The translations under genes and the position numbers were made by a program. 64,000 bases of DNA from a virus, in the IMG/VR virus record IMGVR_UViG_3300047157_000174, positions 1 to 64,000 of that record; one strand, 5' to 3'. A model generated the notes under the pieces. That model was not told the origin of the DNA, made no database searches, and saw only the letters and a list, made by a program, of their open reading frames with translations. This document shows positions 6,097-61,922 of this stretch, piece after piece. Within the stretch, counting starts at the first letter, position 1; each line of letters starts with the position of its first letter.

Positions 6097-6395
6097 TGAA
6101 AACTAAAGACGACTTTGAAATTTTACAATGTGTTATTTGCCTAAAAAACATAGAACATAAAATGTTATTCGGTAAAGTTTTCCGCACACAAGGCCATAAC
6201 GCTGAACCAATTGCATTAGGAAGATGTTGTGATTTTTGTGATTGTATGGTAGTTGAACCTTCTAGGATAGGAGGCTTGTTTGACAAACCTATTGACGTTA
6301 TTACTTATGGTCTAAGAACCTACAAAGAAAGAATGGCTAAAGATAAAGCCAATGGCATTACAACTAAAAGTTTGAAACAGAGGGCGATACAATGA
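6096..6395 (+). CDS. Zn-binding viral hypothetical protein
   Basis: CVIC...GHNAEP...GRCCDFC. Confidence 0.6.
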   Translation: MKTKDDFEILQCVICLKNIEHKMLFGKVFRTQGHNAEPIALGRCCDFCDCMVVEPSRIGGLFDKPIDVITYGLRTYKERMAKDKANGITTKSLKQRAIQ

Positions 6396-13200: not shown

Positions 13201-14123
13201 AAGTAGTTTACGGACACACAGATTCAATTTATGTACAGTGTGATGATATAGAAAAAGCAAAGAACGTTTGTAGTGAAATTAACGACCATGTTAGGAAATC
13301 ATTTCCTAATCTATTAGGTTTAGATGAACACCCTGTTACTTTAGAGTTTGAAAAGTATTACAAATCTCTTGGAGTTGGTGCAACAAAGAATAGAAATGCA
13401 GGTTTAATAACTTGGAAGGATGGAGAATATCTTGAAGAAGACGAGTTTGTTCTTACAGGTTTTTCTGCTAAAAGAGTTGCACAAACTAAATTAGCAAAGG
13501 AAACTCAACTAAAGGTTCTGAGAATGTGGGTTGATGGTGATAGTGAAGAAACTATTACTAATTACTTACATGAGTTATTTAACAGAGTTTTATCGGGAGA
13601 CATAGAATTATCTATGCTTACCAATAGAACAAGATACCGTGAAGAGAGGTTTAAGGTAAAATGTATGGGAGATTGTAAAAAAATGAAATGGGGGAAGGTT
13701 TTCTCACTATCAGAAATAACTGAGAATATTAAAGAACATCGTAGTAATTTTTCTAGCAATAAGTGGAAGTGTTGTAACAAACCCAATCTTAGAACATTAC
13801 AAGATAAGAAACCTACAATTGGTTCGGGTATAGAAGGAGTGTTGTATTACAACTCTTTTAGCAATACTCCAATAGATGATTCTTACCTTTATCTTAAAAT
13901 TAAAAATTGTACGAATACTTACATTCATCCCTTAACTCAAGAAGATACTATTCCTTCTTGGGTTTCAGTTAAGAATGAATCAGAATTAAACAACTTTACT
14001 CCTGACTATTTACATTATGCTTATCAAGTAGTCAGTAAAGCAGAGCCTATCTACAATGCAATGGGGTGGAATATAGATAATATTACTAGAAGTAGGAATC
14101 AAAATTTGGGGGAGTGGTTTTGA
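13197..14123 (+). CDS. polB: Family B DNA polymerase, C-terminal part (motif C, thumb, Cys-rich insert, PIP-like tail)
   Basis: Starts MKVVYGHTDSIYV, then LEFEKYY, KNRNAG, CMGDC...CC insert, and ends NQNLGEWF. Confidence 0.9.
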   Translation: MKVVYGHTDSIYVQCDDIEKAKNVCSEINDHVRKSFPNLLGLDEHPVTLEFEKYYKSLGVGATKNRNAGLITWKDGEYLEEDEFVLTGFSAKRVAQTKLAKETQLKVLRMWVDGDSEETITNYLHELFNRVLSGDIELSMLTNRTRYREERFKVKCMGDCKKMKWGKVFSLSEITENIKEHRSNFSSNKWKCCNKPNLRTLQDKKPTIGSGIEGVLYYNSFSNTPIDDSYLYLKIKNCTNTYIHPLTQEDTIPSWVSVKNESELNNFTPDYLHYAYQVVSKAEPIYNAMGWNIDNITRSRNQNLGEWF

Positions 14124-43890: not shown

Positions 43891-45636
43891 TTAATGCATT
43901 AAAGCCCATTTACCTTTATATTGTGCATTGTTTAATGTTCTTGCTGATGCTGTAAATGAAACCTCTATTGCACCTTTATCTTCGGGGAAAGGAATATCAA
44001 CAGTGTTTATTATAAAATCTGTTAATTTTAATTTAATAAATTCTCCTGATTCCTTAGTAAAGTTCAATTCAATAAAACCTACTGATTCATTATCTTTTCT
44101 TAATTCATCCCAAAGTGTTGTATCTGTAATCAATGCTGTCATTGAAATCTCATATGTTCTTTGTGCAGGTATATGTTCATTCATAACTTGCCTACTTGTA
44201 TTTCCGATGTATCTAGCAGGTGTAATATTATTATTTATAGTGATAGAACCTGATTTAACTCTAGCATATGTTTCACTAAACACTTTCAACGCACCATCAG
44301 AAAACATAAATGGGTAATTATCTGAAGCAGTAGCACTAAAGTTTTGTAAATCACTTGTGTTTAATTTACCATTATGCGGCACATAATCATCTGCTTCAAG
44401 CATAACAATTGCTCCAACCGGAAAACTAGAAGTTAATGCTGTAATTGTTAAGGTGTTAGTTGATTTTGCAGACCATGTAAACTCAACTCCGTTAATAGTA
44501 CCTCTACCTGTACTTCCAAAGCCACTAGCGTCAGCAAGAACTAATGATGTAGCGTTAGCAGTATAAGCAGTAGCGACGGTATTTTGAACTACGGAATTAG
44601 AAGGTGCATCAAAAACTCTCCTACAAACTAAATCTAAACTAGTTTTTAATTCTGATTCTGATTCAAAATTAAGAGTTAAGGTATTAACTTGACAACCCGT
44701 AAATATCCGAGAATATATATTCTCATGTGGGGTTAGATTATCAACGGGAGTGCTTGCAGACACACCTGCTTTTCTATATGATACATCTAACCCGAAAGAA
44801 GGAAGGGAAGCACCGTTGGTTTCGTCAAAAGTATAAGTCAAAAAATCAGCAGAAGCAATTTCATCATAAGCAGGTAAGTTACTAAGAGTGCCTTCGACAG
44901 TATCGGTTGTCGTTGAAAGAGGTGGGTATTCTATTCCCCCTGTTATCACTCTCGAAATACCAACCCCCCCACTATTGTAGATAAATTTATTTTCAGTTGA
45001 GGCATCCCATGCTTCCGAACTATCACTGCCACTATTTGTTAATGCAGATACTTTTCCTAAAGCATAAAATAACCAAGAACCGTTATTCATTGATATATCT
45101 AAAGAACCTCCACTAACGGTTTCTGCACCTTTATATTGTAAACCAATATTTCTAGTATTTCCTCCTACTAAGTTTAGTGAAACTAACTGAGCGTCAACGC
45201 TAGGAGGTGAGAATGAATTAACTAACCCTAACCAATTATCTGACAATAATTTAGGACTTCCTAATGCACTATTAGTATAACTAGTAGGTGCAATAACAGG
45301 AGCGCCAAAACTCAATAATGTAACATGAACGACTTCTGTACCTGTGGTTATCACCGATACATCACTATCTAAAGTAAAACTTTTAGAATCATTAGAATTG
45401 ACACTAGCGTAGAAAACAGCCCCTCCTGTTCCGCTTACAACCTTTACCCTACATCCTTGATATAAATTAGTAATAAGTTTAAATTTTTCTTGGTCGGTTG
45501 TTTCCAAAACTACAATGTTTAAATTAGGAACTTCGGCTGAACCAAAAGTAACTACACAATCATCAAAATACATATCCATTTCAGGCACTAAAGTAGCCAT
45601 TGTCCCTGCGCCTACAAACACTTCATTACTTACCAT
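43891..45636 (-). CDS. Major tail tube protein (siphovirus-like) with inserted beta domains
   Basis: SGGSLDI, LPSFGLDV, FTGCQVNTLTLNF, RTYEISMT; no sheath gene nearby. Confidence 0.75.
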   Translation of the reverse strand: MVSNEVFVGAGTMATLVPEMDMYFDDCVVTFGSAEVPNLNIVVLETTDQEKFKLITNLYQGCRVKVVSGTGGAVFYASVNSNDSKSFTLDSDVSVITTGTEVVHVTLLSFGAPVIAPTSYTNSALGSPKLLSDNWLGLVNSFSPPSVDAQLVSLNLVGGNTRNIGLQYKGAETVSGGSLDISMNNGSWLFYALGKVSALTNSGSDSSEAWDASTENKFIYNSGGVGISRVITGGIEYPPLSTTTDTVEGTLSNLPAYDEIASADFLTYTFDETNGASLPSFGLDVSYRKAGVSASTPVDNLTPHENIYSRIFTGCQVNTLTLNFESESELKTSLDLVCRRVFDAPSNSVVQNTVATAYTANATSLVLADASGFGSTGRGTINGVEFTWSAKSTNTLTITALTSSFPVGAIVMLEADDYVPHNGKLNTSDLQNFSATASDNYPFMFSDGALKVFSETYARVKSGSITINNNITPARYIGNTSRQVMNEHIPAQRTYEISMTALITDTTLWDELRKDNESVGFIELNFTKESGEFIKLKLTDFIINTVDIPFPEDKGAIEVSFTASARTLNNAQYKGKWALMH

Positions 45637-46366: not shown

Positions 46367-47443
46367 TCACGAAATAAAATGTATTAGATTTTTCTTACCA
46401 TCAATAATTTTATTTGCCTCTTCAAGTAAAATATCATGTTTAGTTTTCAAATCTATGTTAGAACCTGTCTCTGCAATCATAATAGAATTATCATCATGTC
46501 GAATAACTTCTGCTGCTACTAATTTAGTAGCGGCTTCGTGTATAGGAGCAGGTACTCTTCCATCTCCGGCTACATAAGTTACTCTAATAGAATGGTTTTG
46601 TACATACGGAAACTCTCTTCTAAAAAATATCTTACCTTCACTATCAATAGTCCAATAATCTCCCATTCTATTTTGGTCTTGATTATCAGTAAAACTTGTA
46701 ACTGAACCAAAGTTAGAAGTCAAAGTACAGGCTGAACCATCCTCACCCATTAATAAAGAAGAAATAATTACAGTTTTACTATCTTCTGAATCAGTAGTTG
46801 CATAAAAGAAATCCGAAATATGCACATTAGTATTACCATTTGCAGTAACAGATTTAGGTGCTACCTCTCCTGTAAACTTAGCAGTTTTATGTGGGAAAAC
46901 TTCATTGATAGCATCCACTAACTGACTAGCAGTAGTTTTAGGGCCGAAGTTATCATAAAAATGCGTACTCTCAACTAAGTTAAAAGTGTAAGAACCTACT
47001 GTTAATGAAATAGTCCAAGCACTATTTGTTACAGATGTTGGTAATGTTATTTTAGCAGTAGCAGAAGCCAAATCTTTGTATTCATTTCCCTGCCAAACTT
47101 CTAATCTTACTATTTTCTGAACTTTAGGTTGCGACAATTGAACAAAACCAACATAATCTTTCCATATAGATACAGGATAAGCCCCTTTATTCCAACCATC
47201 AAAAGAAAAATATTCATCCTTATGTATTATAGGACGATATGATTGTTTGATACCGTCATCTATTTTTTCTTCTACTCTTTTTATTATCTTACCAACTTCT
47301 GCTCTTGTAGGAGTAGTACTATCACTAAAAGCACTAATTTGTAATAGATTAGAAACATCTGTATGAGTAGTATAATACCCAAATCCAATATTATAATTTA
47401 CGTCTATATTTGTGAAATCGCTTGGTGAACTTACTTTACCCAT
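46367..47443 (-). CDS. Head-tail adaptor/connector protein with inserted domain
   Basis: YTTHTDV...IIKRVEEKID N-terminus and IRVTYVAG...VPAPIHEAATKLVA C-terminus. Confidence 0.7.
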   Translation of the reverse strand: MGKVSSPSDFTNIDVNYNIGFGYYTTHTDVSNLLQISAFSDSTTPTRAEVGKIIKRVEEKIDDGIKQSYRPIIHKDEYFSFDGWNKGAYPVSIWKDYVGFVQLSQPKVQKIVRLEVWQGNEYKDLASATAKITLPTSVTNSAWTISLTVGSYTFNLVESTHFYDNFGPKTTASQLVDAINEVFPHKTAKFTGEVAPKSVTANGNTNVHISDFFYATTDSEDSKTVIISSLLMGEDGSACTLTSNFGSVTSFTDNQDQNRMGDYWTIDSEGKIFFRREFPYVQNHSIRVTYVAGDGRVPAPIHEAATKLVAAEVIRHDDNSIMIAETGSNIDLKTKHDILLEEANKIIDGKKNLIHFIS

Positions 47444-47447: not shown

Positions 47448-50400
47448 TCATACCCTTCCTTCTTCTCTCGAATATCTGTTTCTTGCAGGTAATATTATAT
47501 CAGTAATTGCGTCTCTTTCCGGTTGACTTAATCTTTCGGGAACATAATCTATTACCTCAATCATTTTATTGTTCACTTCCCTTTTCCTTCCGGTAGGTTT
47601 TGCAACTTTTTTAGGAGGTCTTCTATCAGAACTCCTAAACTTATTAGTTTGACCTGCGGGTTCAAAATCTATTTTATCCATAGAATCAAAAGTAGATTTA
47701 TTTTCCTTCAAAATGGGTATAAAAGAAACATCCTCCAAAACTTCAGCAAATCCTTTTTGTTCTATTTTTTTATTATATATTTCCTTTAAAAACATTATAC
47801 TATACGCTGCTTTGATACCGTCTATATCATACTGTCCTTCTGTTTTTTTAGGTAAACTTCCACTAAGATTAGATGTAAAATCAGGGTCTAATAAATCAAT
47901 CAATCTAACATTTTTACTATCATCAAAAGTAAACTTTAATAGTGAAAAATCTTGGAAAGCAGCCTTTACATTTTCTCTAACGCTATCACTCATCCAAAAG
48001 AACATCCAATAAAATACATCGTCTTCATATCCGCTTTCTATATCTGCTTTTAATAACATTTTACCAAACTGTTCATAATAATTATTTTCTTTCGCTTTCT
48101 TTCTTCTAGCAAGTTCAGCCTGACTTTCTGCATATTCATCACTTGCTATATTTTTACTAGGTTTGGGTGGCTGTGTCATCTCAAATCTTTTAGCATCTCT
48201 ATCATATCTATCTTGAGCAGTTTCCATATCCATCTGTTGTTCAGGATTTTTAAATTCATCTGTTGAACCATCATCTATATCATCGAGGTCTAATTTTTTA
48301 TTCTTATTATAATTATATTTTATTGTTTCTAATATATTCTTTATATAATCCTCGTTTTGTTTATCTAAAAATTCCTTATTTTTTTCAAAGTATTTTTTAG
48401 CATCTTGACTCAAACCAAACATTATATCTAAAACTTTTTTCCATGTGTTTAAACCAAAAATTTCGTTGTCAAATTCTTTAATTTGTTTTTCATTTAAGGT
48501 CTCAAACCATTTTATAAAAGGCTCATTTCTTACTTTATAATATTCATAATATGCCTCATAATCATCGGGTCTTATTGTATATTCTCCACCGCCACTATAA
48601 ATTTCCTTTCCTCTAAGTTCTTCAGCAGTTCTAGGACTATCTTTGTAACGTGTCGTAACGTATTCGCCTGTTTCGGGGTCTTTCTCTAATTGTAAAACAT
48701 CCTCAAAAGACACAGTTTTTTCTTTGAAGTATTTTTCCGGCATCCCTAAATTTTTAATCTCTTCAATATACATTTCTATTGCTTCTATTAATTTAGGCTC
48801 ATTTAATTTATTAGTGTTAACTAATTCTGTAATGTTAATTCCTTGTTTTTCCTCGATACTTTCTATTTTTCTATCTAAGACAGTCAAATCCCTATTTATT
48901 GCGCTTAATAGTGTTTTAATATTTTGAGACTTTTTACTTCCTGTTCCATAAAAGAACCCCAATACAAAATCATCTAAATCTTCATCGTTAATTTCTTCCT
49001 TTAAAGGAGTTGCTTTACCTTTAGTATATTCAAAGAATTTAGTATTTTCAAATGCACCTTCTAAAGAATCCTTTAAGTTTTGAGTACCTACTAATATTTT
49101 ATCAATTTGATTGATTGCTTTCTTTTTTGCATCAATTTCAGATTGGTTTTCTTTATCTTCATAAGTTTCTAAATATTTTTTCAATCCTTCTACTAATTTA
49201 TCATCCAAAATATTTTTTTTCTCTGTATTAATCCCACCCTTAGCATCTGCACCTTGATGTTCGTTAATATCTTTTTTACTAATAAAATACTTATAATTTA
49301 ATTTCATTTTACCGACTTCTAATTTTCTATTAACAGGAGTTAATCTCAGTAAAATATCACTTCTAATATCTGCTAATCCTTTTATTGGCTTAACTTCGTC
49401 TAACAATATTTTTTGTATTCTTAGTTTTACTTTATCTTCATCTGATAAGTTTTCAACCTCCTTTTTAAGTTCTTTAATGACATCTCGCGTGGAAAGTTTT
49501 TGTTTTTTTGTATTTGACATTATAGAATAAAGTGTATAGCCACCATATTCATTACCGCTTTTTCCCATCCAATCTTGCACATGAGTTATTAATCTGTCAT
49601 CTTTTTTTGCCAACATTTGTTGTGCTACCATTCGGTCTTTTACTTTAACAGGTATTGCGGGCAGTATAATGTTGCCTAGTTCATTAGTACCCAAAACTTC
49701 TCTCATAGTCTCAAATAAAATCTCTCTTTTTTCCTTTTCCGGTATTGCATTTATTGCCGCTTCTAATATATTTTCTTCCTTTCTAATATCAAATATTCTT
49801 TCTATCAATATAAGAGAACCCTTCGGTGTAGATTTACTTTCCACCAATTTACCTACTCTTTCTTCTTGTTTAATAATAGTAATAGTTTCTAATACTGATT
49901 TCAATAACTGTTTAGAAAAATCCATTTTTTCTTCTTCATCCTCTTCAGGATTTTTATACGCTAACAGACCTTCTGAATCTAATTCGACATCATCATCAGT
50001 ATTGCCTTCTTCGTCACCATACTCCCCTTCTACTGTTTCAGAATACTCAGAATCTCCACCTTCTTTTTCTCTGTATATTTCCTTTATTTTGTTTACTATT
50101 TCTTTAATATCATCAACGTCTAATTCTTTTTCTTTAATGTAAGTATTACTATTATCTTGCATTAAACCAATAACATCTTTAATCATATTTTCAGAAAAAT
50201 CTATTTCTTTTAACGCATTAGTAGTATTACTTAGAGATTCCTTTTTACGTTTAATTTCTTCTTCTCTTTCATTTTGATATTTTTTATATTTAGCATCAGA
50301 TTCTCCTTTCTTTTGTTCTCTTTCTGTTCTAACAAAAACTCTTCCTTCAATTATATTATCCAACCAATCATATATTTCACCATTGTTGTTACCAAAATTG

Positions 50401-51428
50401 TTAAACTCTTCAAAAGCCTCTTCAAAATTCTCATCCTCATCTTTACCCGAAGAAGTAAATACAAAACTATCTGTACCTAATGTTCCCATATTTGCTTCTA
50501 TCATCAACTCTTTCATATATTCATATGTATCTACTGTGATAGAAAATTCAGTATCATTTGTAGTTATTTTAATATGTTTCATTAGTTTTTTAGGATTAAA
50601 AATTGGATTAGATTTATCAGCAGCATTGATTATTTTGTTATCCATCCTCGCCCCGATATTCTTTATTCTTTTTGTTTCTTTTCTTAAATCTTTTTTTGTC
50701 ATAGGATTATCAGTTTCCTGAGAATCATCATACTGTTGATTGAGTTTTTCCAATTCTCTTTCTAGATAATCCTTTTTTTCTTCACTCGTTTTATATTCCT
50801 GTCGTTTACCCGTCTTAGTATAATCTTCATCAACTGCTTGGTTAATTTTTTCAGAGTTTAAATCTGCTAGTTTTAAATCCTTCAAACGCTCAGTTATGTT
50901 TACAGTAAGTACAGTTTTACCATTTGGTTTAATTAAAAAATCATTATCCTCCAATGTTTTTAATACCGCAATTATTTCAGATTTCCCTATTATTTTATTA
51001 ACTTCTTTAATACAGTCTTCTAATTCGTTTAGCATTTCATCTGCATTATTAGGATATTCTCCTTCAATATCATCTTCATCTATATTCAAATATTGAGAAT
51101 ATCTTTTCTCACTATCTTTCGCTTTGTTTGTATTGTTTTTGTTTCCTATAAAAGTTTTTGAAATCAAGAAATCTAAAAAGAATCCTTTTACGCCATCAGA
51201 AACTCCTTCAAAACTTTTATCCACAACAATACTATAATTTGCGGGCTTATTTGTTATATTTTTGAGTTCCTTTTCATCAGTTATTGTAACTAATTCACCT
51301 TCCACTCTTTTCTTATAAACAGGTTTTAATGTAGAAGTTAAAGGTTTTATTTTTTTAACTTCTTTTAAAGTTAAATTAAAAGAAACAGGTACGTCATTAA
51401 TTCCAATGTCAGTACTAATTTCTACCAT
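47448..51428 (-). CDS. Large (1326 aa) K/E/D-rich protein of unknown function
   Basis: Long ORF with GGTGG RBS; highly charged and helical. Confidence 0.6.
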   Translation of the reverse strand: MVEISTDIGINDVPVSFNLTLKEVKKIKPLTSTLKPVYKKRVEGELVTITDEKELKNITNKPANYSIVVDKSFEGVSDGVKGFFLDFLISKTFIGNKNNTNKAKDSEKRYSQYLNIDEDDIEGEYPNNADEMLNELEDCIKEVNKIIGKSEIIAVLKTLEDNDFLIKPNGKTVLTVNITERLKDLKLADLNSEKINQAVDEDYTKTGKRQEYKTSEEKKDYLERELEKLNQQYDDSQETDNPMTKKDLRKETKRIKNIGARMDNKIINAADKSNPIFNPKKLMKHIKITTNDTEFSITVDTYEYMKELMIEANMGTLGTDSFVFTSSGKDEDENFEEAFEEFNNFGNNNGEIYDWLDNIIEGRVFVRTEREQKKGESDAKYKKYQNEREEEIKRKKESLSNTTNALKEIDFSENMIKDVIGLMQDNSNTYIKEKELDVDDIKEIVNKIKEIYREKEGGDSEYSETVEGEYGDEEGNTDDDVELDSEGLLAYKNPEEDEEEKMDFSKQLLKSVLETITIIKQEERVGKLVESKSTPKGSLILIERIFDIRKEENILEAAINAIPEKEKREILFETMREVLGTNELGNIILPAIPVKVKDRMVAQQMLAKKDDRLITHVQDWMGKSGNEYGGYTLYSIMSNTKKQKLSTRDVIKELKKEVENLSDEDKVKLRIQKILLDEVKPIKGLADIRSDILLRLTPVNRKLEVGKMKLNYKYFISKKDINEHQGADAKGGINTEKKNILDDKLVEGLKKYLETYEDKENQSEIDAKKKAINQIDKILVGTQNLKDSLEGAFENTKFFEYTKGKATPLKEEINDEDLDDFVLGFFYGTGSKKSQNIKTLLSAINRDLTVLDRKIESIEEKQGINITELVNTNKLNEPKLIEAIEMYIEEIKNLGMPEKYFKEKTVSFEDVLQLEKDPETGEYVTTRYKDSPRTAEELRGKEIYSGGGEYTIRPDDYEAYYEYYKVRNEPFIKWFETLNEKQIKEFDNEIFGLNTWKKVLDIMFGLSQDAKKYFEKNKEFLDKQNEDYIKNILETIKYNYNKNKKLDLDDIDDGSTDEFKNPEQQMDMETAQDRYDRDAKRFEMTQPPKPSKNIASDEYAESQAELARRKKAKENNYYEQFGKMLLKADIESGYEDDVFYWMFFWMSDSVRENVKAAFQDFSLLKFTFDDSKNVRLIDLLDPDFTSNLSGSLPKKTEGQYDIDGIKAAYSIMFLKEIYNKKIEQKGFAEVLEDVSFIPILKENKSTFDSMDKIDFEPAGQTNKFRSSDRRPPKKVAKPTGRKREVNNKMIEVIDYVPERLSQPERDAITDIILPARNRYSREEGRV

Positions 51429-51441: not shown

Positions 51442-52155
51442 TTAAGCAAGCCATTTGGCCCATGCAACTGCTTTACCCAATCCTTGTGCTAGACCTAGAC
51501 CACTTTGAGGTGGAGTATATGTTGGTTGACCTGTTTGTGGGTCAATCCAATAAGGATTATTCATGTTGTCATAACCACTAGGAGGAATAGGATAACCGCT
51601 ACCGTTGTTCATAGCCATTTGTTGTTGGTTTAGAGTATTGTTAAAATTAGTACTCATGTTTCCTCCTTGTATTTGACTTGGATTTAACCCTTGAGGATTC
51701 ATACCCATTTGAGGATTCATACCCATGTTGGTAGAAGGAGCAGGTGCAGATGGAGAACTAAACCCTTGTGCTTCGAGATACTGTTGTTTAGCCATTCTTC
51801 TTTGCATTACAACTTCACTATTGATAGCAGTAGCCAATAGATTTTGTATATCTAAATCAATATTTTCTTGCGTTATAGCAGTAAATTCATTTAACGCATC
51901 GGGTGTAATAGAAAGGTTTCCACTAGAACTTTGACTAAATTCTAATTTAACTAACATCTGACTAACACTTCTAGTAACTGTATCTTCAATTAGTTTTTCT
52001 AATGCCGTTAAGAATGATTCTCCATGATATTGAAAGAAATCTTCTACATGGTTTTCTTGTAAAGTTAGAAGATTATTCATTGCCTTGAATTGTGTTTGTT
52101 GTTGCGCTCCTATTTGAGTCGCAAGGTTACTATTACTTGTACCAAATAATCCCAT
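51442..52155 (-). CDS. Q/N/P-rich protein with WW-like C-terminal motif and amphipathic termini (GTPase cassette)
   Basis: MGLFGTS start, MGMNPQ repeats, PPSGYD...PYWIDPQTGQPTYTPP, ends LGKAVAWAKWLA. Confidence 0.6.
   Translation of the reverse strand: MGLFGTSNSNLATQIGAQQQTQFKAMNNLLTLQENHVEDFFQYHGESFLTALEKLIEDTVTRSVSQMLVKLEFSQSSSGNLSITPDALNEFTAITQENIDLDIQNLLATAINSEVVMQRRMAKQQYLEAQGFSSPSAPAPSTNMGMNPQMGMNPQGLNPSQIQGGNMSTNFNNTLNQQQMAMNNGSGYPIPPSGYDNMNNPYWIDPQTGQPTYTPPQSGLGLAQGLGKAVAWAKWLA
51691..51726 (-). repeat. Perfect 18-nt tandem duplication encoding MGMNPQ x2
   Basis: ttgaggattcatacccat occurs twice in tandem. Confidence 0.9.
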
Positions 52156-52158
52156 TAA

Positions 52159-52848
52159 TCACTCCCCCCCTGTTTCAACATTGACAACGTTAACGCCTTC
52201 GGTTAATAGAGTTTTGACTCTTTCATTAATATTGTTAGTTTCAATAATTAATCTAAATAATTCTTCTTCTTTATTTTCAACACCGTTGTTTGGAGGTCGG
52301 ATAGTCCAACCCATAGCAGAAAGAGATTGCATATCTGTTTGTTTTAATGTTGTCATTGGGCCTGATGTTACTAAGTTAACAGGATTTAAACTTTTAGCAG
52401 ATGGAATATATGCACTAAAAGAAAGACCATGTTCCTCTGCTAATATTTGCTGTTCTAACATCTCATATTGTCTATGAATTGCAGCGTGTTTTTCACAATA
52501 TGTTCCTCTCATGGGATAGCCTTTTCTTACTTTATGTAAAGGTAGAGGAGGTCTCCTAACATCACCTGATTCCCAAACTTTTTGTGAACCACAAACCACA
52601 CATCTATCTTTTAAATTATATTTGAATCGGTATGGTATTTTCAAAAATTTCTTTTTTTCGGGCATCAAAACTTTGATTATTTCTTTCAATTGTTTTTTGG
52701 GCTTTAGGTTTTTATACTCATATTGTATAATTGAACCTGCTGCTCTTGCGGCAGAAAATCTATCTAAAAATGGGTTAGTTCCCACATGGGCTGACTGTGC
52801 GCCAATAAGGTTTGTTGGGTTGTAGTTCATTGTCATGTGGTAATTCAC
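52159..52848 (-). CDS. Zn-finger/coiled-coil protein (GTPase cassette)
   Basis: CVVC...CEKH and a C-terminal coiled coil. Confidence 0.6.
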   Translation of the reverse strand: MNYHMTMNYNPTNLIGAQSAHVGTNPFLDRFSAARAAGSIIQYEYKNLKPKKQLKEIIKVLMPEKKKFLKIPYRFKYNLKDRCVVCGSQKVWESGDVRRPPLPLHKVRKGYPMRGTYCEKHAAIHRQYEMLEQQILAEEHGLSFSAYIPSAKSLNPVNLVTSGPMTTLKQTDMQSLSAMGWTIRPPNNGVENKEEELFRLIIETNNINERVKTLLTEGVNVVNVETGGE

Positions 52849-52850
52849 CC

Positions 52851-53519
52851 TTAGTAGTCCTTTATCATTGTTAGGATTCCTCTATATACCATCTCTGAAT
52901 CAGATTTGGCACTTACTATATATTTGTAGCATGGTATTCCTTTATCATTTAACTTCTGCATACCATTTCTAAAGGATTCAAATATTGGATGTTTTTCTAT
53001 TGTTTCATAATCATATTTGTCTTTCCACAAATCATGTTTGTTAGCCCAAAGACCAACTGCTACGGGATAATCATGTAACTTTTTCTTTTTTCTTTTTCCG
53101 CCAATATTCCAATAAGGACTACAAATAGTATCTACCAAAAAAGTCCAACATAATTGTTGTTCTATATCATAGTGCTTATCCATATGTCTATCATCTAACA
53201 TAAAAATTATATATTTAACTTTTCGAGTTCTCATATCTTCTACCCACTCTTGCCAAAATACTGTTTCACCTCCGACATCAGCAGTTTTAACAGTATGAGC
53301 ATCACCGTCTAATTTTACATATTTTCTTGAGGCTCTATGTAGCCCTACGGTTCTATCTGTAATAGAAGGAACTTCACCTCTAGTTCTTAATTGATGATGT
53401 AATGTAGTTTTACCTGCTTTACTTGCTCCATATACCCCAAATGGTATAGAATGTAATCTTTGGTAAACTTTATTCATACCTTCTACTAATAGAATAGCGA
53501 AGCCCGCCATTACTGACAT
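52851..53519 (-). CDS. Arf/Ras-like small GTPase
   Basis: G1 GASKAGKTT, G2 RTVG, G3 DVGGE, IIFMLD, G4 ANKHDL, G5 SAK; hydrophobic N-terminal helix. Confidence 0.88.
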   Translation of the reverse strand: MSVMAGFAILLVEGMNKVYQRLHSIPFGVYGASKAGKTTLHHQLRTRGEVPSITDRTVGLHRASRKYVKLDGDAHTVKTADVGGETVFWQEWVEDMRTRKVKYIIFMLDDRHMDKHYDIEQQLCWTFLVDTICSPYWNIGGKRKKKKLHDYPVAVGLWANKHDLWKDKYDYETIEKHPIFESFRNGMQKLNDKGIPCYKYIVSAKSDSEMVYRGILTMIKDY

Positions 53520-53525
53520 TATATA

Positions 53526-53750
53526 TCACCATAAATGATGCCATAAATTAACTATCCCATTCCATGTAGAAGTAAACAAATTATAACCAAACAAAGATAT
53601 TGCATGGCCGACCAAGAAACTAATTCCACAAGCAATACCACTCCAAAGAAAAAATCTTGCTCTTAAAAACCAAATATCAGCAGAATGCGCTCTTTGTAAA
53701 TCATAGGCTAATGTGGATTCATCGAACCCCATTAGGATTTCTCCTACCAT
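53526..53750 (-). CDS. Small membrane protein (GTPase cassette)
   Basis: FFLWSGIACGISFLVGHAISLFG TM segment and a Trp-rich amphipathic tail. Confidence 0.65.
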   Translation of the reverse strand: MVGEILMGFDESTLAYDLQRAHSADIWFLRARFFLWSGIACGISFLVGHAISLFGYNLFTSTWNGIVNLWHHLW

Positions 53751-53758
53751 ATAATCAC

Positions 53759-54184
53759 CTACTCATTGAACCCTGTTAAAAATGTTGGGCTAATTGTATT
53801 CCCTTCAAACTGTTGTGATTGTTGTTGCATTGCAGGTAAATTAGCATCTCCATAGAAAGGTTGACCGAATGATTGATTGAAACTTCTAAGTGATTCTCTA
53901 ACTCTTTTACGATTTTCCTCATCTCTTGCTTTTCTATTCCAATAAGCATCTATTTTTCTTTGTAATAAAAAATCTTCAATAATATCATTTAACATTAAAT
54001 CAAATAATGCCTTCAATAACATAATACCTCCTACTGTACATATTCCAAACAGTACTGCGTGGGATAATCCCGTGTATGGAAAGTCAACTCCATATATAGT
54101 GTAAAAATAAATGTTAGTGCCACTAATAGCACCAACGAAAAGTATAGTCATTACTAATCTTGTATCTGTATCAATACTAGGCAT
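53759..54184 (-). CDS. 2-TM membrane protein with coiled-coil tail (GTPase cassette)
   Basis: Two hydrophobic helices, then a charged helix and a Q-rich tail. Confidence 0.65.
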   Translation of the reverse strand: MPSIDTDTRLVMTILFVGAISGTNIYFYTIYGVDFPYTGLSHAVLFGICTVGGIMLLKALFDLMLNDIIEDFLLQRKIDAYWNRKARDEENRKRVRESLRSFNQSFGQPFYGDANLPAMQQQSQQFEGNTISPTFLTGFNE

Positions 54185-55003: not shown

Positions 55004-56407
55004 TTAAGCACTCTTTAGGTTTGTAATTTTACCTTGTCCCTTGAAGAAAGAACAGCAAGTTTCTCCCATAGTGCGGTACATTCCTTGATTTCCAAGTTTA
55101 CCAACACCGAATGGGTTTCCACTAGTAATACCATCTTCGAAGTATTGTGTAGGTTTCATTACAGATAGCCATAGGTGGTCGGTATCTAGAACTAATATAT
55201 CACTAATTCTGTTAGATGTGGACTTACCTGTTGACGGCATATCTTTAGCAGGGATGATTGGTATGTCATAGTATGTTGCAACTCTGAAACCAACTTCTTG
55301 ACCCTTGACACCACGAACACCATTATGGGAAGGAACGATTTCTTTCCTATCCATAAATCTCTCTTGTGATTGTAGTAAATCGGAGATTTTCTGAATGGTA
55401 TCGTATCCTGTAATGATAACTTTAGGGTTTCCACCGTTAGTACGGATTCTTCTAATCATATCATTAAGAATACTTAGTGTTAGAACTCTACATTCACCTG
55501 ATGTATAACCTGCACCGAAATCAACTTCTGCATCTAGGAAAGATGGAACACCTGTGTAGGTATATGCTCCACTTCCTCCTGATGTGTTAACAGTAACAGT
55601 TCTAGTTGAACCAAAGATAGTAGTAGCATCAGCAAGTTGTGCTGCTGTACCGTTATTTGTTTGGTTGTGGTAGAATACGTCATCATCGGCCATAGTTGCA
55701 ATTTCAACAGCAGAAGAAACTATCTTCATCAAAGAAGTGTAGTTCTTCTCAATACCAGTAGTACCGTTCTCTGAGTATTTCTCAAGAGGCATAACTAACA
55801 TTTTGCTCTGAACCTCTGCGTGTAATTTACCCATGTCTTCTCTTACAATAGCACGAATATCACCAACACCATCATCTATTGCAGCCATTTCCATTCCTAG
55901 TTCTGAGAACTCGAATAGATGTGCAATAGTCTTAGGGCTAACATATAGTTTAGTATATTCAGGAGCAATTGCTCTGAAACCATCTGCACCACCTAATGTT
56001 GCGTTTTCTCCAACACCACCAATTTGGTCTGCTCTAGGAGTTGCTGCATCTGCTGATGAAATACTAGCGGTAACTGCATTAGTACCTGTACCGAATGCTG
56101 CGTCACTACCACCAATAGGTCGTGATTTCAGAACTCTCCATCCACTAGATGTGTATGGTCTCTTAGCAAGCATTGCTAGAGGGTTTACTTCTTGGTTTAA
56201 TACAGACCAAACTTTCTGTCCATATAGTAGGTTGTACAAATCACCTAGACCTGCTGCACCCGTAAATGCATTAGCACTAGTATCGTGAGGAGTACCGAAA
56301 CCACCTACAACTCCACCTGCTTTAAGCAAGGCATTGCCGCTTCCTGTTCCGCCATATCCGTATGTTGCTGCTTCTAAATCTTTCATTGTTTTAATATATC
56401 CACTCAT
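55004..56407 (-). CDS. Major capsid protein (HK97 fold)
   Basis: Follows the prohead protease; YGQKVWSVLN, SGWRV, GGNPKVIIT, ATYYDIPIIP, and C-terminal QGKITNLK. Confidence 0.85.
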   Translation of the reverse strand: MSGYIKTMKDLEAATYGYGGTGSGNALLKAGGVVGGFGTPHDTSANAFTGAAGLGDLYNLLYGQKVWSVLNQEVNPLAMLAKRPYTSSGWRVLKSRPIGGSDAAFGTGTNAVTASISSADAATPRADQIGGVGENATLGGADGFRAIAPEYTKLYVSPKTIAHLFEFSELGMEMAAIDDGVGDIRAIVREDMGKLHAEVQSKMLVMPLEKYSENGTTGIEKNYTSLMKIVSSAVEIATMADDDVFYHNQTNNGTAAQLADATTIFGSTRTVTVNTSGGSGAYTYTGVPSFLDAEVDFGAGYTSGECRVLTLSILNDMIRRIRTNGGNPKVIITGYDTIQKISDLLQSQERFMDRKEIVPSHNGVRGVKGQEVGFRVATYYDIPIIPAKDMPSTGKSTSNRISDILVLDTDHLWLSVMKPTQYFEDGITSGNPFGVGKLGNQGMYRTMGETCCSFFKGQGKITNLKSA

Positions 56408-56419: not shown

Positions 56420-57604
56420 TTAATTTCCCCTCACAAGAGAATGTACGTCATCCCAAGTCATATTGGCTGCTGCCTCTAAACTTGTAGGTATTCCTTCCGG
56501 TAATGCCATTGACATTTCCGCGCTCTTGCGAATTGTTTCGTCTTTCTCTGATAGAGATTTTCGTAGTAGAGCAAACTCTTCTTTTAGTGCTGCTACATCT
56601 GTTCTAGCATCGTATGATGCGGATTCTGCTGCTGATTTCTTAACTGCAAGTTCTTCTGAAAGTCTTGCTTCAAATTGCTTAGAAAGATTATCGTATGCAA
56701 GTTTTTCCATCTGCTCTGCTTTGAATTGTGCATATGCTTTCTCAACATTTTCTGCACTTAGGTTAAGAGTACTAAAGTCCGAAGCCTCTAAGCCTTCACT
56801 CTTTAGTTCAGTAGGTGCAGCAGTAGGCTTACCGCCACTTACTACTAATTCACCTGCTTCGTAGTCTCTAGTTGAATCTTCATCAAGAGCCTTCTCTTCC
56901 ATTTCAGATTCATCCATAGATTCTTTTTCCATTTCCTCATCATCATCGGCATCCATATATGCCATTTCATTCTTCGTTACTTCGTCATATTTTCCTTCCT
57001 CTCCGAGTCCGTTAACTTGTTTCATCAAGTCATTCAACTCTTCGAGTGCTTTTTCCAACTTCTCACTCATTGTTTTATCCTCCATTTTTAAAATGTCGAA
57101 TTTTGCTTCGGGATTAATCCCCTTTTCACAGATAGTTACTTCGTGTAACTCCAATCTGTCTATCTCATTGTATTCACCGAACTCATCCGATGTTTTTTGT
57201 TTCTTAGAAATCGCTTGACCTCCAATACTAAAAGAACGTAAAGTTCCTTTTCTAATACTTCTTGAAATTTCTTTTGCTTTTTCTATGTCATCTCTTAATT
57301 TAATAACAACATAAAACCCTACATCATCTACTCCTGTCTTGTGTAGAGTACCATTAGTATCTCTATACTTTTCAATGACTTCTCCTACCTGTACATTAGA
57401 ATGATTAGACATAACATTCCTATATTTCTTTTCAGACATATATTTTTCAACTGCTTCATCTAACGCCTTCAATGTAATTAAATCATTTTGCTTATCTACA
57501 ATTTCTATTGAAGCATAGCCTCCAATAACTAAATCATCAGACTTGAGAATAGTAAACTCATGTTCTTTATCTACTTGCATTAAAATAGATGGCTGCATGA
57601 GCAT
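56420..57604 (-). CDS. Prohead protease fused to scaffold
   Basis: IGGYASIEIVDKQND, His in NHS, catalytic-Ser motif SFSIGG, LHEVTIC...INPEA; acidic coiled-coil C-terminal half. Confidence 0.85.
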   Translation of the reverse strand: MLMQPSILMQVDKEHEFTILKSDDLVIGGYASIEIVDKQNDLITLKALDEAVEKYMSEKKYRNVMSNHSNVQVGEVIEKYRDTNGTLHKTGVDDVGFYVVIKLRDDIEKAKEISRSIRKGTLRSFSIGGQAISKKQKTSDEFGEYNEIDRLELHEVTICEKGINPEAKFDILKMEDKTMSEKLEKALEELNDLMKQVNGLGEEGKYDEVTKNEMAYMDADDDEEMEKESMDESEMEEKALDEDSTRDYEAGELVVSGGKPTAAPTELKSEGLEASDFSTLNLSAENVEKAYAQFKAEQMEKLAYDNLSKQFEARLSEELAVKKSAAESASYDARTDVAALKEEFALLRKSLSEKDETIRKSAEMSMALPEGIPTSLEAAANMTWDDVHSLVRGN

Positions 57605-57637: not shown

Positions 57638-60247
57638 CTAATCGTTAATTTTAGGTGGAAATTCTAAATTGGAATATTTATCCTCTTGAATATTCCAAAC
57701 ATCTACGTCATCTTCATCCTTCAACATATCTTGTTTTTTACCTGTCCAAACTATCCATGTTTTTTTCTCATTAAGAGGCACTACTCTAACGTGTATTCTA
57801 GTGTCGAACTTATCTCCTTCTAATTTATATTCATGGTAGCCATCCTTTTGGACTCCTAGAATAACATTTCCCTTGTCTATAACTTTACCACCGTTTATTT
57901 TTTCTGCTACAATAGCAGGGTATTTATTCGATTTACCAAATAAATTATACACATCATCAGTATCTTCAATGTCTATTAACCAAGCAAACCGTTTTTTCTT
58001 ATAATCAATTATAAAATTAAGATTGCCGTCTTCTTGTTTAGTTATTGTAAACTCGCCCGTTCTAGATTCTTCTTTATGAATAACCATATCATCTGTATCT
58101 TTTTCTAAAACTTCTTCGTTAGACATGAAAGTATTAGGGTGTTTGTAAATGAACGAATCTTGTTTTTTCATCCAATTCATTAATTTAGATTCGAGTGAAT
58201 CAAAAAGACTTTGGTATAAATCCATATGATTTTTTCTAACAAATAGTAATATTTTATCAAACTCTAGAGCATCTTTACCACTATCTAATATTTCATTACG
58301 AATTGATATTCTTAATTCGGAACGTTTACTTTTTATTAATTGATTTAATTCTTCTTTCCACAAATCAATATTATGCAGAGCATTTTTCTCCATTAAATTA
58401 TCGCCCTCAAATCCATATAAAGTATAGCCTTCTAAATTTTCCTTTAATATTATTTCAGCAACACCGTGCGTATCATCTGTAATATAATATCCTTTCTTAA
58501 GTTTTTTAGGTTTTACTAAATCGGATTCCATACCACTCATAATTCTAAATGGCTTAGGAACTTTACCTGCAAGACCCTGTACTAAAGTGCTAAGAGATTT
58601 CTTACTTTTGCTTGCTAATTTTTCTAAAGTAGCAATATTATCAGATTGTGTTACTTCCGGTATTTCTATTACTTTAGCAGAATACAAACTGAATCCGTTT
58701 TTCTTCTTAGTTACTTCATCAACTTTAACTCTAACAATAGAGCCTATGTCAACATTTATTTTTGTGTTGAGAGCCTTACCAACTTCTAAATATGCTTTAT
58801 CTTCATAATCAACAGTAGAATAGTTTCTAGCAACTTCTGCTGTAACAGGGCCGATTCCCATAGTATAAGAATGTAGATTACTTTTTGTCTTTCTATCGTT
58901 TAATACCACTACATCTAAATCAACAAATTTTTTCCACTTAATCCACTTTGGATTTTTTCTATTTCCTATGTAATATGTAGATTCAATGTCTTTGATAACC
59001 ACACCTTCTGACGCAGGTAGTTTCATAATATCTTGAGAATAGTTTTCAACTTCTTTCTTTGAATCTGCTATTCTAGTATCTTTCTTAGATGGGAATGCTA
59101 GTTTTTCTGAGGAATGTTGAGCGTATTGATATAATAAAATATTAATTCTTTCTCTTAATGGAGTATCTGTAATATCTTTACCTTCGTGTAACATAATATC
59201 AAAAACGTGAGCCTTCAATGTGCCTTCTGTTTTTTTGTGGAATACATGAGTGATAGTATCTGCTCGGTGTAACGGTTCATCTTCCATAAACAACATTAAT
59301 TCTGCATCTAAAATACAATCTCCAAACTGTTTCTTTTCCATATGCTTAACTTGTTCTGAACATTTAGAAGTAATATCCTTTTGATTAAAGGAATATATTT
59401 TAACTTCATCATTGAACTTGTGTATTTGTATTCTCATACCATCGTATTTTTCTTGAACAACAAACTCTCCCGTTAACCCCTTAATGTCATCTAAATCATC
59501 TATCTCGAAAATCCGATACATTGGTTTGTTAGGTTTAATAAAATCTATACCTGCTTTTTTTTCTTGTTCATCATCTGCCTTTGAAATGTCTAATTCTAAT
59601 AATGAATCCCATTGTTCTTCATTATATTTTTCTAGATATATTTTTTCTAATTGTTTAAATCCCTTTTTACATTTAGATTCTATTCTTCTGTTATCAGAAT
59701 CTTCATCACCATAATGTTCCAATATGTAAATAGGTACATCTTTAGGTTCTAAGTCTAACCCCATATATCCCTGCGTTATTTCATCGGGTTTCATACCATG
59801 TGCTTTCCAAGATTTTTCCGGTATAGTATTAGCATGAGACCTTACAGCATAATGAATAAATGCTAATAACATTGATTCATTTTTTAGAAACTCTTTGATT
59901 ACATTATCTCCTAATTGTTTAGAAAAAGGGTCTGATATTTTATCTGATTTAAACCTAAGATTTTTTACTCCTTCATATATTTCCTTTGCCTGTCTTGAAG
60001 TAGGGTCATATGCCTCATCGGAAAAAGCAGTATCTTCTTTTAGATGTCTTTTCAATTCTCTAGTAAAATCTCCCAAAGAATCATATTGGTCTCTTACTTC
60101 TTTAACTGTTTTTTTCCATTTATTTCCATACTCGGAAGGATTCTCTTTTGCAGAAAGATATGAATATCTTACCCTTTCAAAAAAGTCTAGAACTCTTTTA
60201 GTTAAAGAACTCTTTTCCTTTTCAAATAAAAGTCCTGTTTGTGGCAT
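57638..60247 (-). CDS. Second ATP-dependent ligase-domain protein, in the head module
   Basis: QEKYDGMRIQIH, ILDAEL, FDI, EGVVIK, WIKWK and an OB domain; long N- and C-terminal extensions. Confidence 0.8.
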   Translation of the reverse strand: MPQTGLLFEKEKSSLTKRVLDFFERVRYSYLSAKENPSEYGNKWKKTVKEVRDQYDSLGDFTRELKRHLKEDTAFSDEAYDPTSRQAKEIYEGVKNLRFKSDKISDPFSKQLGDNVIKEFLKNESMLLAFIHYAVRSHANTIPEKSWKAHGMKPDEITQGYMGLDLEPKDVPIYILEHYGDEDSDNRRIESKCKKGFKQLEKIYLEKYNEEQWDSLLELDISKADDEQEKKAGIDFIKPNKPMYRIFEIDDLDDIKGLTGEFVVQEKYDGMRIQIHKFNDEVKIYSFNQKDITSKCSEQVKHMEKKQFGDCILDAELMLFMEDEPLHRADTITHVFHKKTEGTLKAHVFDIMLHEGKDITDTPLRERINILLYQYAQHSSEKLAFPSKKDTRIADSKKEVENYSQDIMKLPASEGVVIKDIESTYYIGNRKNPKWIKWKKFVDLDVVVLNDRKTKSNLHSYTMGIGPVTAEVARNYSTVDYEDKAYLEVGKALNTKINVDIGSIVRVKVDEVTKKKNGFSLYSAKVIEIPEVTQSDNIATLEKLASKSKKSLSTLVQGLAGKVPKPFRIMSGMESDLVKPKKLKKGYYITDDTHGVAEIILKENLEGYTLYGFEGDNLMEKNALHNIDLWKEELNQLIKSKRSELRISIRNEILDSGKDALEFDKILLFVRKNHMDLYQSLFDSLESKLMNWMKKQDSFIYKHPNTFMSNEEVLEKDTDDMVIHKEESRTGEFTITKQEDGNLNFIIDYKKKRFAWLIDIEDTDDVYNLFGKSNKYPAIVAEKINGGKVIDKGNVILGVQKDGYHEYKLEGDKFDTRIHVRVVPLNEKKTWIVWTGKKQDMLKDEDDVDVWNIQEDKYSNLEFPPKIND

Positions 60248-60939: not shown

Positions 60940-61263
60940 TCAATAATAATCCCACGCTAAGTATTTTCTTGTTAACTTACCTCTTTTATCGAACTTATAA
61001 GTAGCAACTGTATATTCTGGAATAGGTTCACCATCATCTATACCAACATCAAGATAATATGCCTCATCTTCATCAAGATAACTTATATCAAGAATGTAGT
61101 CTTTTAATTCATCTACATCATAACTTTTTTCCCTTAATTCTTCTAATTTGGTTTCATTGTAATCATCTTCGCCAAATATATGTTGATTAAAGAAATCATC
61201 TACTGCTTTATCTAATTTCTTCGGATGCAATCTTTTTATTTTTAGTATATCTTCCCAACTCAT
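60940..61263 (-). CDS. MSWEDILK-tagged acidic protein
   Basis: Shared N-terminal tag; GGAGTGA RBS. Confidence 0.65.
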   Translation of the reverse strand: MSWEDILKIKRLHPKKLDKAVDDFFNQHIFGEDDYNETKLEELREKSYDVDELKDYILDISYLDEDEAYYLDVGIDDGEPIPEYTVATYKFDKRGKLTRKYLAWDYY

Positions 61264-61557
61264 TCTAAATCACTCCACATTACCTAATCTGACTTTTATT
61301 GATACCTACACCTCTGACGGTGAATTTCGCTGTCTCTCTAGGTCTATCTTTTGTTCCCATTAGACATCTAACAAAAATAGGCAGGTCAAAACCAAGAACA
61401 GGTTGTGAGGAAGAGGAATAAATAACGTCGGATTTAACACCAAACTTCTCATCTATCATTTTCATGATATCTTCTAAATCCCCCTCTTCTCCTATCAGTT
61501 CCTCTAACTCTGCCATTACATCTTTCTTTAGTATATCTTCCCAACTCATTCTAAATC
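61241..61557. repeat. Identical 31-bp direct repeat (61241-61271 and 61527-61557) spanning the start region and MSWEDILK codons
   Basis: tttagtatatcttcccaactcattctaaatc occurs twice; partial copies at about 60926 and about 61850. Confidence 0.9.
61280..61549 (-). CDS. MSWEDILK-tagged protein
   Basis: Shared N-terminal tag. Confidence 0.65.
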   Translation of the reverse strand: MSWEDILKKDVMAELEELIGEEGDLEDIMKMIDEKFGVKSDVIYSSSSQPVLGFDLPIFVRCLMGTKDRPRETAKFTVRGVGINKSQIR

Positions 61558-61872
61558 CCCCTTACTCTTTGGATAAACCAAGTCTCGTATTTGCCGATAC
61601 AAAGTTTCGTAATCTTTTCTAAGTTCTGCTGCTGATGAAACTATTTCTAGATTCTTTTCATCAAAGCCCTCGAACTTTTTTTGAAGTCTTTTATCAGACT
61701 TAATTAAGTCTAATTTTTTCATCTCATCTAACAGGTCTGAAAGATGTGTCATCTCTTGACCCATGTATTCAGTAGGCTGAGTTTTTTGAAGAAGTTTCTT
61801 AAGTTTCTTCTTTTGTTTAGCATCAATTTTTTCTAAAATTGAAGGTGATTTTAGTATTTCTTTCCAACTCAT
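61546..61872 (-). CDS. MSWKEILK-tagged helical protein
   Basis: Shared N-terminal tag. Confidence 0.65.
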   Translation of the reverse strand: MSWKEILKSPSILEKIDAKQKKKLKKLLQKTQPTEYMGQEMTHLSDLLDEMKKLDLIKSDKRLQKKFEGFDEKNLEIVSSAAELRKDYETLYRQIRDLVYPKSKGDLE

Positions 61873-61922
61873 ACTCAACCACTTTGTTTATCCGTTCCTA
61901 CAACTAGTTTATCAAATTATCT

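Follow-up and report, generated by a model that had tools for sequence, protein, structure and literature searches.

A conserved five-gene cassette encoding an Arf-like small GTPase and small membrane proteins in the late region of a putative archaeal tailed virus

Introduction

Small GTPases of the Arf family are defined by an amphipathic N-terminal helix that is coupled to an interswitch toggle and released on GTP binding, and the Arf-related ArfR proteins have been reported to be almost exclusive to Asgard archaea (10.1101/2024.02.28.582541). In Haloferax, vesicle formation is driven by a small GTPase that has an N-terminal amphipathic helix and shares its operon with a Zn-finger protein; this GTPase, ArvA, can be classified only loosely with hidden Markov models (HMMs), as either MMR_HSR1 or Arf (PMC10927574). 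For the archaeal head-tailed viruses, the players in lytic egress are described as "completely uncharacterized" in a 2024 review (PMC10791045). These systems provide the background for the locus analyzed here, a cassette of five genes at positions 51442-54184 of the virus record IMGVR_UViG_3300047157_000174, which combines an Arf-like small GTPase with two small membrane proteins, a predicted zinc-binding protein and a Q/N-rich protein. The record is a complete genome of 96,094 bp with direct terminal repeats and a G+C content of ~33%; its first 64 kb are the stretch that was analyzed and are referred to below as the window.

The virus resembles the magroviruses, viruses of uncultured marine group II archaea that have been described as ranking with the most abundant ones in the surface ocean (PMC5434244). 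An initial annotation of the window, made from the letters of the sequence, had pointed to the cassette and proposed that it might function in membrane remodeling or egress. The comparative analysis reported here bears out the cassette, its synteny and the Arf-like character of the GTPase, whereas the lysis or egress component of that proposal is interpretation throughout.

Organization and conservation of the cassette

The cassette consists of five co-oriented open reading frames (ORFs) on the minus strand, separated by intergenic gaps of 2-8 nt; 4 nt separate it from an upstream gene for a 91-aa protein and 13 nt from a downstream gene for a 1326-aa protein. Given that the gaps measure only 2-13 nt, there is no room for separate promoters. 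The five genes are:

53759-54184, minus strand: g1, 141 aa, small membrane protein; two hydrophobic segments, then a charged, helical C-terminus
53526-53750, minus strand: g2, 74 aa, single-pass, Trp-rich small membrane protein with one transmembrane (TM) segment
52851-53519, minus strand: g3, 222 aa, divergent Ras-superfamily, Arf-like small GTPase (motifs and structural model)
52159-52848, minus strand: g4, 229 aa, predicted zinc-binding and helical protein (C-x2-C...C-x2-H)
51442-52155, minus strand: g5, 237 aa, Q/N/M/G-rich protein (composition and alignment)

The initial description of five packed, co-oriented genes is accurate to the nucleotide, and hydropathy, motifs and composition agree with the protein types that it had assigned (a 2-TM protein, a 1-TM protein, a GTPase, a zinc protein and a Q/N-rich protein). 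Hydrophobic or membrane-type segments are found in four of the five products.

Homologues of the GTPase were found at 140 IMG/VR loci, from which a close group of 80 loci was retrieved. Content and order of the five genes are kept in all 80, far beyond what could be attributed to chance, and the expectation that the cassette would be syntenic in related viruses was thus borne out. The GTPase is the most conserved protein of the region, with a median identity of 80% across the close loci, compared to 74% for the capsid protein, 70% for the prohead protease and g4, and 66-68% for g1, g2 and g5; g1 is present, at 45-96% identity, in every close locus that extends to it.

Viral contigs of 30-118 kb encode more distant GTPases, at 28-35% identity, in the same layout: first a TM protein of 143-272 aa, next a smaller one of ~72-89 aa, and then the GTPase, which is followed by a protein of 256-347 aa and a Q/N-rich protein of 190-272 aa. 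Iterated HMM searches identified the first and second genes after the GTPase as homologues of g4 and g5 in each of the 84 distant loci, and such homologues occurred nowhere else in these loci. In the distant groups, the pair of genes that precedes the GTPase consists of positional TM analogues of g1 and g2 without sequence homology to them, the protein in the g2 position mostly containing a TM segment. At position +3, the distant groups mostly possess an extra 2-TM protein of ~77-91 aa (for example, L118:10172-10429), so that their cassette comprises six genes; a search with an HMM of this extra gene found no copy in the present genome or in the 80 close loci. Whatever its function, the trio of the GTPase, g4 and g5 is a good set of marker genes for this virus assemblage.

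The location of the cassette is less stable than its composition. The initial annotation had placed it between the capsid genes and the head-tail adaptor, which is correct for this genome; the distant groups, however, carry it upstream of the terminase, so that its place between capsid and neck cannot be regarded as fixed. In the distant loci, the cassette follows the gene for a giant protein of 2,200-2,300 aa, and directly after the cassette comes a homologue of a Cys-rich protein that in the present genome lies outside the window, 21 kb from the cassette and upstream of the terminase:

genome 74740-75420 (L168:10740-11420), minus strand: 226-aa Cys-rich protein

Apart from the cassette itself, no other gene in its vicinity is conserved between this virus and the distant groups (28-35% identity, E values from 1e-28 to 1e-43). 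It belongs to no Pfam family; one distant homologue gave weak HNH and HTH_5 matches. In two distant records, one rated complete and one 61% complete, cassette and terminase share a strand, with the terminase 9-12 kb further downstream. Jackhmmer searches with the capsid, protease, adaptor, ligase, 151-aa, 91-aa and 175-aa proteins of the present virus gave no match within 8 kb of the distant cassettes, and Pfam and PHROGs searches with ten neighboring proteins from the distant loci were uninformative. Given that its composition is retained while its position in the genome changes, the cassette behaves as an autonomous functional module within the late region.

Sequence motifs and family affiliation of the GTPase

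In g3, the G motifs follow each other in the canonical order: G1 is GASKAGKTT, the candidate G2 is RT(V)G, G3 is DVGGE with a Trp at +7, G4 is NKHD and G5 is SAK. The segment that starts with G3 reads DVGGE-TVFWQE-W92 and is followed by IIFM(L/I)D. The G1 motif is intact in 161 of 162 GTPase homologues and G4 in all 162, and the Trp at +7 after DxGG is present in each of the 154 homologues in which the motif was parsed. The catalytic position, a Gln in Arf, is occupied by Glu85 in g3; it is E in 52 and Q in 28 members of the close group, and Q, E, D or H in the distant groups. Together with the small G-domain fold of the model (see below), this set of motifs identifies g3 as a predicted small GTPase of the Ras superfamily (TRAFAC class).

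All matches of g3 to Pfam families are below the respective thresholds: SRPRB (PF09439) with 22.2 bits and an E value of 1e-4 (cut-off 25), Roc with 18.2, Arf (PF00025) with 17.8 (cut-off 22.3) and MMR_HSR1 with 17.0. NCBIfam gave only the generic small_GTP domain, also below its cut-off. Among 57 members of the GTPase family, the weak Pfam matches are distributed over MMR_HSR1 (44 members), SRPRB (36), Roc (27), Arf (22) and Ras (22); the matches to Arf were counted at E values up to 0.01, the best being 3e-6. A profile search of the PDB with the family retrieved 8OUN as the first entry (6e-9), followed by Rab33, Arl8 and Ras at ~1e-7. We take 8OUN to be an Asgard ArfR, judging from its sister entry 8OUM, which is GerdArfR1, and from the respective preprint (10.1101/2024.02.28.582541).

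Two assignments of g3 were considered and rejected. Membership in the Arf family PF00025 fails by score, being below the gathering cut-off with SRPRB, Roc, Ras and MMR_HSR1 at comparable levels, and identity with SR-beta (PF09439) fails by score as well (22.2 versus 25 bits) and by the hydropathy of the best N-terminal 19-residue segment, which is below the threshold for a TM segment. The "Arf-like" label of the initial annotation is accordingly retained for the wording of the motifs and for the predicted fold, but not in the sense of membership in the Arf family, for which the coupling of helix and interswitch toggle is the defining feature.

Predicted structure and membrane-type features of the GTPase

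The AlphaFold2 (AF2) model of g3, built from an alignment of 57 sequences, has a predicted local distance difference test (pLDDT) score of 86 and a predicted template modeling (pTM) score of 0.83, and consists of a 20-residue N-terminal helix, a six-stranded G-domain core and an extra beta-hairpin. Foldseek returned at least 500 matches to this model at E < 1e-3 across the Ras superfamily (Rab, Arl, Ras). When the matches were re-ranked with VIA-align, all 1000 re-aligned chains had Z scores of at least 8; the best were GTP-bound Arf6, Arf1, Arl1 and Arl3, and the top 35 entries were all Arf or Arl (Z 18.8-17.4), with a root-mean-square deviation of ~2.4 Å over ~161 residues. The first G-alpha appeared at Z ~17.3 and the first Rab at ~16.6, so that the margin of the Arf/Arl proteins is only about 2 Z units. 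In a search of BFVD with the same model, the sole viral matches were Ras/Rab/Ran-like proteins of giant viruses (8e-11 and weaker).

Two features of the model are of the kind associated with membranes. The N-terminal helix (residues 3-22, pLDDT 55-60) is directed away from the core, and its 12-residue core across the family has a median Kyte-Doolittle (KD) hydropathy of 2.37 and is followed by basic residues. With a KD value of 1.6 over 19 residues as the threshold for a TM segment, the best N-terminal segments of the family reach a median of 1.36, a few distant members reaching 2.1; in most members, the helix thus seems to be too short or too polar to span a membrane. The second feature is the polybasic beta-hairpin inserted before beta5 (residues ~134-153 of g3), with a median of six Lys/Arg residues, which is found in all groups. 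As read from these sequence features, the hydrophobic helix at the N-terminus, together with the conserved hairpin and its basic residues, suggests peripheral membrane binding.

Partner proteins

In g1, hydrophobic segments are located at residues 10-28 (KD 1.56) and 43-61 (KD 2.13), followed by a tail predicted to form a charged helix with 10 K/R and 8 D/E residues, an architecture that resembles a class-II holin; g2 contains a TM segment at residues 33-51 (KD 1.73). Searches of g1, g2, g4 and g5 against Pfam, PHROGs and NCBIfam yielded nothing beyond noise at E values up to 0.1.

The Cys/His cluster of g4 has the form C83-x2-C86 ... C118-x2-H121, and across 72 homologues C83, C118, G87 and G110 are invariant and H121 nearly so. 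The AF2 model of g4 has a pLDDT of 69, with the core, residues 30-145, at 80-91. The fold has no detectable relatives: Foldseek against the PDB gave nothing better than E 5, the best Z score in the VIA-wide comparison was 4.3, which is the background level, and scores in the ESM Atlas did not exceed 0.84, the level of chance. A Pfam scan of all 72 members of the g4 alignment and of the members of the g5 alignment returned only noise. The invariable location of g4 directly after the GTPase gene makes it a candidate regulator or effector of g3. The possibility that g4 is the zinc protein OapC/ArvC (PF09845) was considered and rejected: no match to this family was found in g4 (E up to 0.1), in its 72 homologues (E up to 0.05) or in a six-frame translation of the 96-kb genome. 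Likewise, no Pfam match to ArvB (DUF2073) was found at E up to 0.1 in the five proteins or in the flanks.

The g5 protein, with 21% Q+N, has a conserved MG(L/W)F start and a central domain of ~90 aa that is embedded in low-complexity stretches of Q, N, M and G. Its C-terminus is Gly-rich and hydrophobic or amphipathic, and scores as a TM segment in many distant members. The core of g5 gave scores of at most 0.80, the level of chance, in the ESM Atlas, and neither the family scan nor the ESM Atlas revealed relatives beyond this virus assemblage.

Distribution of the GTPase family

Among metagenomic proteins, 364 homologues of the GTPase were detected at E values up to 1e-3, many of them on contigs of 60-104 kb, and the family is spread over marine metagenomes, those of Tara included. 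When 1.84 billion cluster representatives (clusters at 50% identity) were searched exhaustively with phmmer, only 59 clusters were retrieved, which comprise the family together with fragments of it and a small number of full-length relatives with 28-38% identity; not a single ordinary cellular Arf, Rab or Ras passed this search.

A scan of 185,579 species genomes with a single peptide pattern, an approach of limited sensitivity, found only two GTPase loci, consistent with the essential absence of the cassette from cellular genomes that the initial annotation had expected. Both loci (NZMJ01000101.1 and NZMJ01000024.1, 76% and 62% identity) belong to one metagenome-assembled genome of Maricaulis sp., where they are located on contigs of 29 kb and 12 kb that are most likely mis-binned viral sequences. 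The GTPase family is nearly confined to viruses. In the literature searched, the cassette has no description, nor is there a mention of a GTPase in magroviruses or Poseidoniales viruses.

Genomic context and affiliation of the virus

The plus strand of the window carries a replication block, which also includes an exonuclease gene, and a long minus-strand block consists of late genes. The latter are arranged in the order of the terminase and a weak portal match (outside the window), a second ligase-domain protein, the prohead protease, an HK97-type capsid protein, neck and tail-tube genes, and giant tail proteins. The capsid gene is separated from the cassette by two small genes, for proteins of 151 aa and 91 aa. 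The principal features of the window are:

2758-4302, plus strand: ATP-dependent ligase (replication block)
6392-7312, plus strand: clamp loader (replication block)
10794-12494 and 13197-14123, plus strand: family B DNA polymerase (PolB), split over two ORFs (replication block)
43891-45636, minus strand: tail tube (late block)
46367-47443, minus strand: adaptor-like gene (phrog_442, 6e-4; phrog_17057, 2e-19)
47448-51428, minus strand: 1326-aa Lys/Glu/Asp-rich protein without a family match, between the cassette and the adaptor-like gene
55004-56407, minus strand: major capsid protein (PF17236, 1e-10)
56420-57604, minus strand: prohead protease (Pfam/PHROG search)
57638-60247, minus strand: 869-aa ATP-dependent DNA-ligase-domain protein (PF01068, 2e-29), in the head module upstream of the prohead protease

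The first of the two PolB ORFs covers the exonuclease part and the start of the polymerase part, and the second matches the polymerase part of phrog_262; the two are separated by two small ORFs, in agreement with the split DNA polymerase reported for some magroviruses. The gene for the 1326-aa protein is hypervariable: in most close relatives it gives no tblastn match or only 22-44% identity, compared to 60-99% for the neighboring genes. Thirteen late-strand ORFs (window 60940-61878; genome 64180-80622, minus strand) start with a tag of the type M-(S/T)-W-(E/F)-(D/N/E)-(I/V)-(L/V/I)-K; an N-terminal tag of this M-S-W-x-x-I-L-K type is found in none of the five cassette proteins.

In a search of phage records, the capsid protein of the window is closest to those of haloarchaeal tailed viruses, its matches being confined to haloarchaeal and methanogen viruses; magroviruses seem to be absent from this collection of 50,697 records. 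The haloarchaeal relative with the nearest capsid protein, Haloarcula virus HCTV-16, carries between a Mu gpF-like gene and the protease a gene (MZ334524.1 72227-75856) for a 1209-aa protein annotated as "zeta toxin", which represents a large non-structural insertion in a head module; this locus does not contain a GTPase.

A ligase embedded in the structural module has been reported for magroviruses of groups A and B (PMC5434244). The two ligases, one of them in the structural module, the split PolB, the haloarchaeal-like capsid protein and the homologues in marine metagenomes jointly match the published viruses of these groups. Going by that study, the present virus would be of the magrovirus type and its host would belong to the marine group II archaea.

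Possible functions of the cassette

The explanation that we tentatively favor, at a shade below even chances, is that the cassette codes for a GTPase switch complex, specific to the virus and associated with the membrane, which is produced along with the late (virion) genes; co-transcription with these genes, membrane binding, complex formation and every aspect of function are what we infer from the data described above. Under this scheme, g3 would dock on the cytoplasmic face of the host membrane via its hydrophobic N-terminal helix and polybasic hairpin and would work there with the integral membrane proteins g1 and g2. The zinc protein g4 would regulate g3 or serve as its effector, g5, a Q/N-rich protein with a hydrophobic C-terminus, could provide a multivalent scaffold, and the binding and hydrolysis of GTP would time a membrane event late in infection. 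The most likely event of this kind would be the release of the progeny, either by GTPase-controlled triggering of the holin-like g1 and g2 or by local disruption of the membrane. Release is ranked first in view of the expression context, the holin-like g1, the lack of a recognized lysis gene and the absence of a known egress mechanism in archaeal tailed viruses. With respect to the lysis genes, the initial annotation had noted that neither a holin nor an endolysin was recognizable, and this holds for the wider set that was scanned: no conventional lysis gene was recognized among ~55 proteins of this genome.

Although a role in egress or membrane remodeling is plausible, several observations weigh against the proposed scheme. 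Neither g1 nor g2 matches a holin family in PHROGs or Pfam, and small TM proteins are unspecific as such; fold and family searches reveal no likeness of g4 to any known GTPase-activating protein, guanine nucleotide exchange factor or effector; and the mechanism of hydrolysis may differ from that of Arf, considering that the residue after DxGG varies among E, Q, D and H. A tblastn search with the GTPase found no match in the 50,697 phage records, and the haloarchaeal tailed viruses with the nearest capsid proteins have no GTPase homologue near their capsid genes. Given that these related haloarchaeal tailed viruses lyse their hosts without such a GTPase, the cassette cannot be a general egress system of archaeal tailed viruses, and as an egress system it would be a lineage-specific solution. 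Within the explanation by a switch complex, egress and other membrane events seem to be about evenly balanced. The more specific claim that an abundant group of tailed archaeal viruses has its missing machinery for lysis or egress in this cassette, with the membrane-docked Arf-like GTPase as a GTP-driven timer or trigger for small holin-like membrane proteins, is rather unlikely.

The presence of the cassette within the tightly coupled head-neck gene block of this genome, and a level of conservation as high as that of the capsid protein, which fits an essential virion-linked function, could indicate a role in morphogenesis or in the virion itself, that is, GTP-dependent assembly or quality control at a membrane-bound site, or the supply of internal or ejection proteins that travel in the particle and target the membrane of the next host during entry. 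In podoviruses, genes for membrane-active ejection proteins are indeed found among those for head and tail. We nevertheless consider such a role doubtful: the distant cassettes are located upstream of the terminase, with no homologue of the capsid protein, protease or adaptor detectable within 8 kb, related haloarchaeal tailed viruses build similar particles without the cassette, and its five products lack both the N-terminal tag of the late proteins and any match to a structural family. The initial annotation had held such a GTPase to be foreign to standard head-tail modules, and the haloarchaeal relatives, which lack it near the capsid gene, agree with this view; non-structural genes at such a location do have a precedent, however, as the lysis genes of P2 sit between head and tail genes.

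A viral counterpart of ArvA-type vesiculation, which would mediate vesicle budding or another form of non-lytic remodeling (vesicle release, decoys, superinfection exclusion, or a compartment for replication or assembly), follows the same logic as ArvABC, with a helix-bearing small GTPase beside a Zn-finger protein in one operon (PMC10927574). The weak Pfam matches, MMR_HSR1 as the most common one (44 of 57) together with Arf, are also those reported for ArvA, and the fold is Arf-like. This explanation is nonetheless improbable given that g4 is not OapC/ArvC, that ArvB has no match here, that ArvABC includes neither integral membrane partners nor a Q/N-rich protein, and that tailed viruses are not known to exit by budding. 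A function away from membranes, in late expression, translation or the handling of nucleic acids, would have the hairpin and the zinc protein bind RNA or DNA and would leave the TM proteins as separate entities. Binding of nucleic acids is common among polybasic loops and Cys/His zinc modules, MMR_HSR1, the most common weak Pfam match, represents ribosome-associated GTPases, and g1 and g2 have no sequence homology across the groups. Yet positions -2 and -1 are occupied by TM proteins in essentially every group, even though the sequences of these proteins turn over, both g5 and the GTPase carry hydrophobic terminal segments, and the best structural matches are GTPases of membrane traffic, so that a non-membrane switch is very unlikely.

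The explanation by a membrane-associated switch complex yields a concrete and testable candidate for egress, namely a virus-encoded GTPase that exceeds the capsid protein in conservation and is tied to membrane proteins. Should the cassette be an egress machine, it would represent a release mechanism without a bacteriophage counterpart and an Arf-type membrane switch outside eukaryotes and Asgard archaea. Arf-style switching would then extend to viruses of Euryarchaeota, which bears on the question of where such switches arose, given that ArfR has been reported to be almost exclusive to Asgard archaea.

Comparison with known systems

The closest resemblance of g3 is to eukaryotic Arf, Arl and Sar1 proteins (Arf1, Arf6, Arl1, Arl3, Arl8 and Sar1) and to Asgard ArfR (GerdArfR1, PDB 8OUM). 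All these proteins share with it a G domain of ~200 aa, an N-terminal helix of ~20 residues with a hydrophobic face, the xAGKTT P-loop, DVGG(Q/E) with a Trp at +7 as in Arf, Sar and G-alpha, (I/L)IF(M/V)xD after switch II, and NKxD. The viral GTPase differs from Arf in that the identity is only ~20%, the catalytic position is Glu or Gln, and an extra polybasic beta-hairpin precedes beta5; furthermore, the SAK of G5 is Ras/Rab wording rather than that of Arf. Unlike ArfR, it is encoded by a prokaryotic tailed virus, the presumed host of which is a euryarchaeon. SR-beta, the best single Pfam match of g3, likewise has an Arf-related G domain behind an N-terminal hydrophobic anchor, but fold searches recognized no SRX/longin-type partner in g4.

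With ArvABC/OapABC of Haloferax volcanii, the cassette shares an archaeal small GTPase with an N-terminal helix and a zinc protein in the same operon, but it adds two integral membrane proteins and a Q/N-rich protein; for ArvA, this comparison is by description. The lysis cassettes of phages, which consist of holin, antiholin, endolysin and spanin, are similar in that small membrane proteins with one or two TM segments, including one with a charged C-terminus as in g1, are encoded inside a morphogenesis operon. The viral cassette is distinct in having no endolysin, spanin or holin-family match, and in that its presumed host lacks murein; a GTPase combined with a zinc protein and a Q/N-rich protein has no counterpart in any described lysis cassette. 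Finally, among viruses, the Ras/Rab/Ran-like GTPases of the giant viruses (Nucleocytoviricota) are recent captures of eukaryotic host genes, whereas the magrovirus family is a separate, deeply divergent lineage found in viruses of prokaryotes.

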